From IMG/VR virus record IMGVR_UViG_3300031344_000001: a stretch of 64,000 bases of DNA; one strand, given 5' to 3'. Shown here one piece after another: positions 19,543 to 20,153 of the stretch. The stretch's first letter is position 1; each line of letters starts with the position of its first letter. The notes beneath the pieces are model-generated. The model was not told where the DNA came from. It was given only the letters and a program-made list of their open reading frames with translations, and did no database searches. The stretch is from a virus. Its lineage: Duplodnaviria; Heunggongvirae; Uroviricota; Caudoviricetes. Position numbers and translations under genes: made by a program.

Positions 19543-19568
19543 CCACGCCCAGAGTATCGCAGTCGCAG

Positions 19569-19651
19569 TGCGCCTGGCTGGGGTCGAACCAGCACGGGAT
19601 TACTCCCAGCGGTTCCTAAGACCGCCGCGTATTCCGCTCCGCCACAGGCAC
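19569..19651 (-). tRNA. tRNA-Leu(TAG)
   Basis: cloverleaf; loop CTTAGGA. Confidence 0.9.
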
Positions 19652-19667
19652 TTACGTTGAAGAATCG

Positions 19668-19752
19668 TGCGGCCAACAGGAGTCGAACCTGCCCGGGCTT
19701 GCGCCCACCAGCACCTCAAGCTGGCGTGTCTGCCAAAATCCACCATGGCCGC
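19668..19752 (-). tRNA. tRNA-Leu(GAG)
   Basis: loop TTGAGGT. Confidence 0.9.
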
Positions 19753-19762
19753 ATACAACACG

Positions 19763-19847
19763 TGCGGACGACAGGAATTGAACCTGCCCGGGCTTGCGCC
19801 CACCGAGCCCTGAACTCGGCGTGTCTACCAAGATCCACCACGTCCGC
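19763..19847 (-). tRNA. tRNA-Leu(CAG)
   Basis: loop TTCAGGG. Confidence 0.9.
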
Positions 19848-19865
19848 GTATCTAATTTTCAAGAG

Positions 19866-19949
19866 TGCCAACGGCGAGAGTCGAACTCGCACGAGCGTCA
19901 AGCTCGGTCGGGTTTAGGCCGACTGCGTCTACCGATCCGCCACGCTGGC
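19866..19949 (-). tRNA. tRNA-Leu(TAA)
   Basis: loop CCTAAAC. Confidence 0.9.
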
Positions 19950-19950
19950 G

Positions 19951-20034
19951 TGTCCGAGGCGAGAATCGAACTCGCATGAGCCTGAAGCCCAGCCGGGTTT
20001 GAGCCGACCGCGTCTACCAATCCGCCACTCGGAC
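19951..20034 (-). tRNA. tRNA-Leu(CAA)
   Basis: loop CTCAAAC. Confidence 0.9.
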
Positions 20035-20057
20035 GAAGTGCTGCGAGCTACGACTAC

Positions 20058-20111
20058 CTAGACAGGTAGTCGTAGCGAGCGAAGTCGAACAGGTAAGCGG
20101 AACGTGCGCAT
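20058..20111 (-). promoter_or_regulatory. Leu-codon leader peptide MRTFRLPVRLRSLRLPV with 13-bp hairpin (20047..20076)
   Basis: GGAG SD; Leu codons TTA, CTT, CTA, CTA. Confidence 0.75.
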
Positions 20112-20124
20112 CGAGGACACTCCA

Positions 20125-20153
20125 CATCTAGCGCGGACCCGCGCTATCGTCAA
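20125..20153 (-). promoter_or_regulatory. promoter TTGACG-N17-TAGATG
   Basis: consensus match upstream of the Leu leader. Confidence 0.55.

Follow-up and report, generated by a model that had tools for sequence, protein, structure and literature searches.

Directly upstream of a cluster of five tRNA-Leu genes lies a 17-codon open reading frame that, judged from 20 compared copies, is very likely a selected, translated sensor of Leu codons. The Leu tRNAs are probably supplied only while ribosomes decode these codons slowly. The locus lies on the minus strand of the window, by which we mean the whole 64,000-nt stretch of viral DNA that was analysed (IMG/VR record IMGVR_UViG_3300031344_000001). 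Its features, together with two further leaders from the same window, are listed in Table 1.

Table 1. Features of the Leu leader locus and of the two other leaders in the window.
Feature	Coordinates	Strand	Remarks
Promoter-like element	20125..20153	-	-35 TTGACG 20153-20148, 17-nt spacer, non-consensus -10-like hexamer 20130-20125
Leader ORF, 17 codons + TAG	20058..20111	-	Leu codons TTA6 (20096-20094), CTT10, CTA13, CTA15
Core hairpin P1, perfect 13 bp, 4-nt loop	20047..20076	-	20076-20064 with 20059-20047; 5' arm = codons 12-17
Extension helix P2	20040..20090	-	20090-20085 (codons 8-9) with 20046-20040; stacks on P1; RNAalifold consensus
Short pyrimidine/U-rich tail	20035..20039	-	Between P2 and first tRNA
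Anti-tRNA segment, codons 3-10	20084..20103	-	Complementary to first tRNA nt 1-18 (20034-20017)
tRNA-Leu(CAA), first gene	19950..20034	-	ARAGORN; Rfam RF00005
tRNA-Leu(UAA)	19865..19949	-	ARAGORN; Rfam RF00005
tRNA-Leu(CAG)	19762..19847	-	ARAGORN; Rfam RF00005
tRNA-Leu(GAG)	19667..19752	-	ARAGORN; Rfam RF00005
tRNA-Leu(UAG)	19568..19651	-	ARAGORN; Rfam RF00005
Ser-rich leader, 14 codons + hairpin	11470..11514	-	Between tRNA-Met and tRNA-Ser(CGA), Ser(GCU); conserved in L061, L064, L138
Main-array leader, 57 codons	39053..39226	-	With antiterminator/terminator to 38985; conserved in L002-L004; array without Leu/Ser tRNAs

A Leu-rich reading frame ahead of five tRNA-Leu genes

A previous sequence-only reading had described at this position a short ORF with the Leu codons TTA, CTT and two CTA, overlapped by a perfect 13-bp hairpin and followed by tRNA-Leu genes for CAA, TAA, CAG, GAG and TAG. 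All of these elements were recovered (Table 1), with the TAG stop of the ORF spanning the loop and 3' arm of the hairpin. The same reading had held the Leu codons to be rare in this DNA, and indeed TTA, CTA and CTT account for 1%, 2% and 6%, respectively, of the Leu codons in the well-behaved genes of the window. Among the 328 window ORFs of 14-21 codons that start with ATG or GTG, at least four TTA, CTA, CTT or TTG codons were found only in the Leu leader (present with two in-frame starts) and in one other ORF. At gathering score, matches to Rfam in the window were to tRNA and tmRNA only, with none to leader or T-box families.

Conservation of start, frame and Leu codons

Relatives were first fetched via neighbouring proteins, blind to the leader. 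The leader was found directly upstream of the Leu cluster in five out of five such relatives (L058, L060, L061, L062 and L064); L002, L003, L059 and L063, where no Leu cluster lay within reach of the retrieved sequence, stand outside this count. An 18-nt core (codons 8-14) that was invariant in the first relatives was then scanned in metagenomes and genomes. This yielded 250 matches, 23 of which had a hairpin arm or a tRNA-Leu behind them. An in-frame ATG or GTG lies exactly 24 nt upstream in all 23 of these true matches, compared with no ATG and five GTG at that position in the remaining 227, which are chance matches. Twenty distinct leader copies were gathered, the window's included, 14 via the 18-nt pattern and six independently of it; the copies are akin to each other and counts over them are therefore not independent. 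Every copy that has downstream sequence is followed by tRNA-Leu genes. The scans of genome collections returned one true copy (L205), on a contig of a Kofleriaceae MAG, and no chromosomal host attenuator of the Leu-leader form. DNA patterns based on the tRNAs (viral and genome collections) and a pattern of promoter plus arm gave no matches. A 15-mer gave a further 53 viral matches and a hairpin pattern gave 11, all of which were rejected as chance, having no ORF, arm or tRNA, and serve as a negative control.

Two interchangeable Leu cassettes are found behind the one leader. The long-arm type, as in the window, holds five normal tRNAs (CAA, UAA, CAG, GAG and UAG), and the short type holds four tRNAs of 72-77 nt (UAA, GAG, CAG and CAA) without a long variable arm. 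Loci of the cassette types are L058:11499-11817, L060:11715-12091, L061, L062, L066, L071, L102, L119 and L138, and short tRNA-Leu genes of a similar kind occur in Virus Rctr197k (GenBank KX853510.1).

A promoter ahead of the leader had also been proposed, and a promoter-like element is present: TTGACG-17-TA is found in 17 of 20 homologues and a variant -35 in two more. The same architecture lies ahead of the Met/Ser block and the main tRNA block in the window, and a strict sigma-70 scan of the window called no promoter at the leader. The GGAG that had been read as a Shine-Dalgarno sequence did not survive the comparison. It is kept in only 2 of 20 homologues and sits 2-5 nt behind the -10 hexamer, in the promoter discriminator, and no Shine-Dalgarno sequence is conserved among the 20 copies. 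The start codon follows the -10-like hexamer by 9-13 nt. Sigma-70 geometry places the predicted transcript start 1-7 nt ahead of the start codon of the leader. Because the start codon is so near to the hexamer, the GGAG is probably untranscribed promoter DNA and translation of the leader is probably near-leaderless.

Start codons are ATG in 18 copies and GTG in two, all in frame. Leu occupies codons 6, 10, 13 and 15 in all copies and is drawn from four codon boxes (TTA, CTT, CTA and TTG). Codon 6, which lies beyond the search pattern, is TTA in 19 of 20 copies and CTA in the other. Codon 15 is TTG in the 19 homologues and CTA in the window alone; the TTG is kept, pairing through a U-G wobble, although CTG would make a better pair. 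Codons 9-13 were fixed by the search in 14 copies and are invariant also in the six that were found without it. The amino acid varies freely at codons 2, 3 and 5, and synonymous changes occur at codons 2, 4, 5, 14 and 16. TAG, TGA and TAA all serve as the stop, which falls at codon 18 in 17 copies, at codon 17 in one and at codon 21 in two. Indels of 1, 2, 4 and 5 nt are confined to the stop or beyond, the sole ORF-internal one being a 3-nt deletion. Because the start, the reading frame, the stop and the rare Leu codons persist while the codons around them drift, the ORF bears the signatures of a frame that is translated and selected for particular codons rather than for its peptide. The central claim of the sequence-only reading, a Leu-sensing leader, is thus well supported by the comparison of the 20 copies. 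Arg codons 9, 11 and 14 and Ser codon TCG12 are invariant to the same degree as the Leu codons, and with such codons inside the hairpin, a specificity for Leu only is something we infer rather than observe.

The same patterns bear on the simplest alternative, that nothing is regulated here, the hairpin serving to process or stabilise the RNA, or being what is left of an inverted tRNA 5' end, with the ORF arising as a by-product. Pairing does explain many of the invariant bases, no Shine-Dalgarno sequence is present, and the short type of first tRNA has a 5' end similar to the 3' arm of P1, so the complementarity described below could be historical. However, an in-frame start in 20 of 20 copies, three interchanging stop codons and frame-breaking indels found only after the stop speak for a used frame, as do the synonymous changes and an invariant but unpaired TTA, which are coding signatures. 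We consider this the least likely of the explanations discussed here.

The hairpin, its extension and the U-rich tail

P1 alone is modest when set against shuffled sequences (z -1.97), and is taken to be more than chance because it is conserved among homologues. Over 19 sequences, its 12 aligned pairs are paired in 99.6% of cells. Two pairs show double changes (C-G/A-U in 6 sequences, G-C/A-U in the window), one of which preserves Arg14 and the other Leu15. P2 lengthens P1 by 6 bp, pairing codons 8-9 with the 7 nt after the hairpin; it is paired in 94-98% of cells and shows no double changes in the alignment. The 8 nt after P2 contain a mean of 3.9 U, versus 2.7 ahead of internal tRNAs and a background of ~1.4, and the window's own tail has 3 U of 8. 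Exceptions are L143, which is without the tail, and L205, which is without P2; ORF and P1 remain in both. That no U-tract follows the hairpin, as had been stated before, is correct for the 13-bp stem: none lies directly after P1, and a terminator scan of the window was negative at the leader. It does not apply to the P2-extended stem, which is followed by an interrupted U-rich tail. Masked folds, examined for an antiterminator, open the stem yet yield no stable alternative hairpin. The 3' arm and the start of the tRNA could together form a further candidate terminator hairpin while the ribosome sits at the stop; this candidate was rejected because no U-tract lies behind it.

The extended stem raises an alternative output for the same Leu sensor, namely a weak intrinsic terminator, possibly assisted by NusA/NusG, formed by the 18-19-bp stem of P1 and P2 and the U-rich tail. 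Stalling at any of the Leu codons would leave the 5' strand of the stem masked by the ribosome, and a ribosome at the stop would be released while RNA polymerase pauses at the tail, allowing the stem to close. This would account for all four Leu codons and for polarity over the whole cluster. P2 is conserved, the tail is richer in U than the tRNA spacers, and the distance from stop to tail is 29-34 nt in 18 of 19 copies, approximately one ribosome-polymerase spacing. Moreover, the real terminators of this lineage, ahead of the main array, have interrupted U-tracts too. However, the tail in the window itself is just 3 U of 8, L143 and L205 do without tail or P2 while retaining ORF and P1, and the support for P2 includes no double changes. 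Single-sequence folds often give the base of the stem to an alternative 5' hairpin, the terminator scan was negative and no antiterminator was seen. On balance, we regard termination of this kind, the chief competitor of the mechanism proposed below, as rather unlikely.

Complementarity between the leader and the first tRNA

In folds of longer transcripts, the leader runs on into a rod with the first tRNA. Codons 1-9 were compared with the 5' 25 nt of the first tRNA, using 257 other tRNA 5' ends as controls. The duplex was better than the control mean in 19 of 19 copies (ranks 0.4-30%), in a pairing region that was picked after the folds were inspected, with p-values uncorrected for that choice. 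Among loci of its type, the window has the weakest duplex (-17.0 kcal/mol, within the best 20% of controls). A narrower first test, of codons 3-7 against tRNA nt -3 to +12, gave a weak result, with a median rank of 0.17. In the seven long-tRNA loci, which are of the window's type, codons 3-5 form 6 pairs with the D-loop (97.6% paired, two double-change pairs) and codons 7-10 form 9 pairs with the acceptor strand (98.4% paired), whilst TTA6 is invariant and looped out, unpaired, in the rod. In L176, the choice between TTC and TTT for Phe4 follows the D-loop. Permutation of cognate and swapped leader-tRNA pairings gave a borderline result for the long-tRNA loci (p = 0.048) and a non-significant one for the twelve short-tRNA loci (p = 0.16). 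Support for pairing of the leader codons with the 5' arm of the first tRNA is modest, because the sequences are few and akin, the wider region was chosen after inspection and the predicted duplex is weak in the window.

The effect of a ribosome on this structure was modelled at 16 loci by forcing an assumed footprint (-15/+12) to be single-stranded, in folds free of tertiary contacts and modifications. In these folds, the acceptor stem of the first tRNA formed with a probability of 0.98 for the tRNA alone and 0.08 behind a free leader. The value was 0.33 for an initiating ribosome and 0.82 when codon 6 occupied the A site, and it was 0.55 for codon 15 and 0.24 for the stop codon. Stalling at Leu10 or Leu13 left the tRNA unfreed in the model (0.30 and 0.17). 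A codon-by-codon scan of the model showed a peak at codons 5-6 and a second rise at 14-15. With shuffled leaders, placing the ribosome at codon 6 raised the acceptor-stem value only from 0.21 to 0.31, and shuffled free leaders likewise suppressed the stem (median near 0). It is therefore the position-specific release that is informative, and not the suppression. Positions 6 and 15, where release occurs in the model, hold UUR codons, the ones decoded by the tRNAs that come first in the clusters (UAA and CAA).

A modelled ribosome anywhere at codons 5-8 frees the tRNA, as would be expected of a general sensor of translation stress in which any stall at codons 4-15, whether on Arg, on Ser or through antibiotics or ribosome damage, opens the structure. 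The toiL and whiB7 uORFs act in that way (PMC12121999, PMC11550727), and the invariance of Arg codons 9, 11 and 14 and of TCG12 could be read in the same sense. The helices, however, explain why these Arg and Ser codons are conserved, whereas TTA6 is unpaired in the long-tRNA loci. Moreover, the cargo fits the codons in three out of three blocks: Leu codons precede Leu tRNAs, Ser codons precede Ser tRNAs and a mixed leader precedes a mixed array. A general stress sensor is, in our judgement, improbable.

A candidate mechanism

For the output of the leader, the earlier reading had named pausing, Rho-dependent termination and processing; the comparison supplies pairing with the first tRNA as a specific candidate. 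We propose a ribosome-gated anti-tRNA rod switch that would match the supply of tRNA-Leu to demand. The promoter would yield a near-leaderless transcript, and a ribosome would translate the 17-codon ORF. With fast Leu decoding, the ribosome would complete the ORF and depart, and the free leader would adopt one long rod, with codons 12-17 hidden in P1 and codons 3-10 base-paired to the first tRNA along its 5' acceptor strand and D-arm. Bound in this rod, the first tRNA could neither fold nor undergo RNase P cleavage, and the misfolded transcript would be terminated (by Rho or at a weak stop at the tail) or degraded. Decoding of UUA at codon 6 or of UUG/CUA at codon 15 would be slow if the matching tRNA were uncharged, in short supply or cleaved by a host nuclease. 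The ribosome, stalled there, would then cover the anti-tRNA segment, the first tRNA would fold, and the cluster would be made and matured. As a whole, this mechanism, which we favour over the alternatives, is plausible, and we put it forward tentatively, stopping a little short of calling it probable. That tRNA folding or maturation is the output, such that a ribosome awaiting tRNA-Leu(UAA) at the TTA codon lets that tRNA fold and the cluster appear, is possible but doubtful; a block on the first tRNA does not in itself silence the other four. The rod and the weak terminator are not exclusive, because P2 forms first in transcription and the rod later.

Rho might also be the principal agent, in an attenuation like that of tnaC or speFL, where the C-rich ORF would be a rut site hidden by the stalled ribosome and the hairpin just a pause signal. 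Such a device needs no terminator, uORF attenuators that act through Rho in this manner have been described (PMC12360218), and codons 3-13 are C-rich and G-poor; but the stretch ahead of P1 measures only ~35 nt, short of the 60-90 nt that are optimal for a rut site (PMC12360218), much of the C-rich stretch is predicted to be paired, and Rho is patchy in the candidate host family. We think this very unlikely. Of 61 incomplete genomes of Kofleriaceae, the one candidate host family, only 30 gave a match to the Rho RNA-binding domain. The genomes in which it was missed include assemblies of 8-10 Mb, and the misses may reflect assembly incompleteness or real patchy loss.

Relation to known attenuators

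The classical attenuators of E. coli and Salmonella (trpL, hisL, pheL, leuL and thrL) use a translated ORF to sense the supply of charged tRNA. Like these, among which leader-peptide attenuation is described for hisL (PMC12360218), the Leu leader is a conserved short ORF, rich in one amino acid, that lies at the 5' end of an operon and overlaps an RNA structure, and its control codons fit the amino acid served by the downstream genes. Unlike them, it precedes tRNA genes rather than genes for biosynthetic enzymes or synthetases, its control codons are scattered and chosen by codon box instead of forming a run, and it has no antiterminator/terminator pair, no U-tract and no match to an Rfam attenuator.

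In the mycobacterial polycysteine sORF attenuators (Canestrari et al., 10.1101/834739) and in attenuators of the cat/ermC type, the ORF is itself one strand of an inhibitory duplex, which opens when a ribosome stalls. The Leu leader resembles these, its ORF being the predicted 5' strand of the P1, P2 and anti-tRNA helices, with covariation in P1 and the D-loop helix and with opening in the model. The polycysteine sORFs are, moreover, leaderless or near-leaderless, as the Leu leader may be, and provide several operons with a sensor of their own (10.1101/834739), as the leaders of the window would. However, the duplexes of these systems hide a ribosome-binding site, whereas the genes behind the Leu leader are untranslated and the predicted target is the tRNA 5' arm. 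The Leu leader would work as a leader-peptide attenuator whose architecture is closer to that of the single-duplex sORF attenuators, toiL among them.

At toiL-topAI (PMC12121999) and whiB7/wblC (PMC11550727), translation stress sensed by a uORF lifts repression, as proposed for the Leu leader, and toiL links a masked site to Rho-dependent termination (PMC12121999). Unlike the Leu leader, both have protein-coding targets and sense stress broadly, and the true terminator/antiterminator of whiB7 (PMC11550727) fits the main-array leader of the window and not the Leu leader. The trn operon (L-array) of Anabaena, the one stress-induced tRNA array that has been characterised, is likewise an accessory tRNA array with tRNA-repair genes nearby, and is induced by translational stress (PMC8421152; TrcR, PMC10272220). 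It differs from the Leu leader in being under a promoter repressor that is not codon-specific, and leader or attenuation is unmentioned in PMC8421152. In synthetic RNase P riboswitches (Ender et al., PMC8925977), a hairpin across the tRNA 5' leader controls RNase P cleavage in E. coli and toggles maturation in vivo. These are engineered and ligand-driven, whereas the Leu leader is natural and only predicted to be driven by the ribosome. No natural leader-peptide control of tRNA genes was found in the open-access literature, subscription papers lying outside this coverage. What would be new is uORF attenuation with a new class of target, tRNA genes, and possibly a new output too.

Phages may carry tRNAs on account of codon bias, in answer to starvation, or to make good tRNAs that host defences have cleaved. 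If the leader gates its tRNA-Leu genes by the decoding of specific Leu codons, a 200-nt reporter could decide between these reasons, as the stress that induces the leader would be the one that the Leu tRNAs answer. The absent terminator, unlike other such leaders, points to an unusual output, possibly the control of tRNA folding. If the proposal is true, tRNA supply would be under codon-specific feedback that requires no terminator, riboswitch or regulator protein, and a giant phage would replace exactly the tRNA family lost to starvation or to a host anticodon nuclease.

Sister leaders

A layout matching that of a Ser leader in the same window had been pointed out earlier, and the likeness holds across four homologues. 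The Ser leader (11514-11420) lies downstream of tRNA-Met in the same transcript, and two homologues have a 4-U tail. Pairing of its upstream codons with the first tRNA-Ser ranks in the top 1-2% against controls for the window and L064, and is unremarkable in L061 and L138. A short motif is common to the Ser and Leu leaders, and a common origin is possible. The main-array leaders (in the window, L002:2935, L003, L004:5090, L143 and L205) have 54-57 codons, with 37-40 different codons and few for Leu or Ser, and a classical antiterminator/terminator. The three leaders of the window split the tRNA set by cargo, because the main array is without Leu and Ser tRNAs, which have leaders of their own.

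In Virus Rctr197k, the tRNA array is preceded by a 52-codon ORF (L306:6772-6990) that lacks an annotation and encodes every one of the 20 amino acids, with the same promoter type ahead of the ORF and a predicted antiterminator/terminator pair behind it. A distant sub-lineage (L143:1914-2260, L164 and L205) has a Leu leader of 20 codons with the stop in the 3' arm and a different promoter. Its first tRNA is decayed or missing, there is no U-rich tail, and the Leu cluster lies directly before the main array.

Genomic context

A gene for a vWA protein is located at 33008-31116, and the contigs that carry this protein reach 461 kb. Relatives of 80-85% identity are numerous on contigs of 130-410 kb, and remoter ones lie on an IMG/VR contig (62%) and in Virus Rctr197k (58%, where the gene also adjoins a tRNA array). 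Because of these contigs and the leader copy in the Kofleriaceae MAG, we provisionally call the carrier of the leader a giant phage-like element, with possibly a host among the Myxococcota. No capsid or terminase gene was seen in the window, and Pfam and PHROG scans of the flanking genes gave no phage hallmark.

Adjoining the Ser block, window positions 8237-13436 hold a translation-rescue cluster of an RNA ligase, an RF-1-domain protein, tmRNA and a Pth2-like gene, the last named via synteny with L061. RtcB flanks the tRNA arrays in L002 and L003. Lastly, the plus strand of the window carries at 13510-13818 a group of tRNA-like genes for which the anticodon calls vary or have four bases; the group is conserved at L061:10523-10965 and L064:15411-15733.
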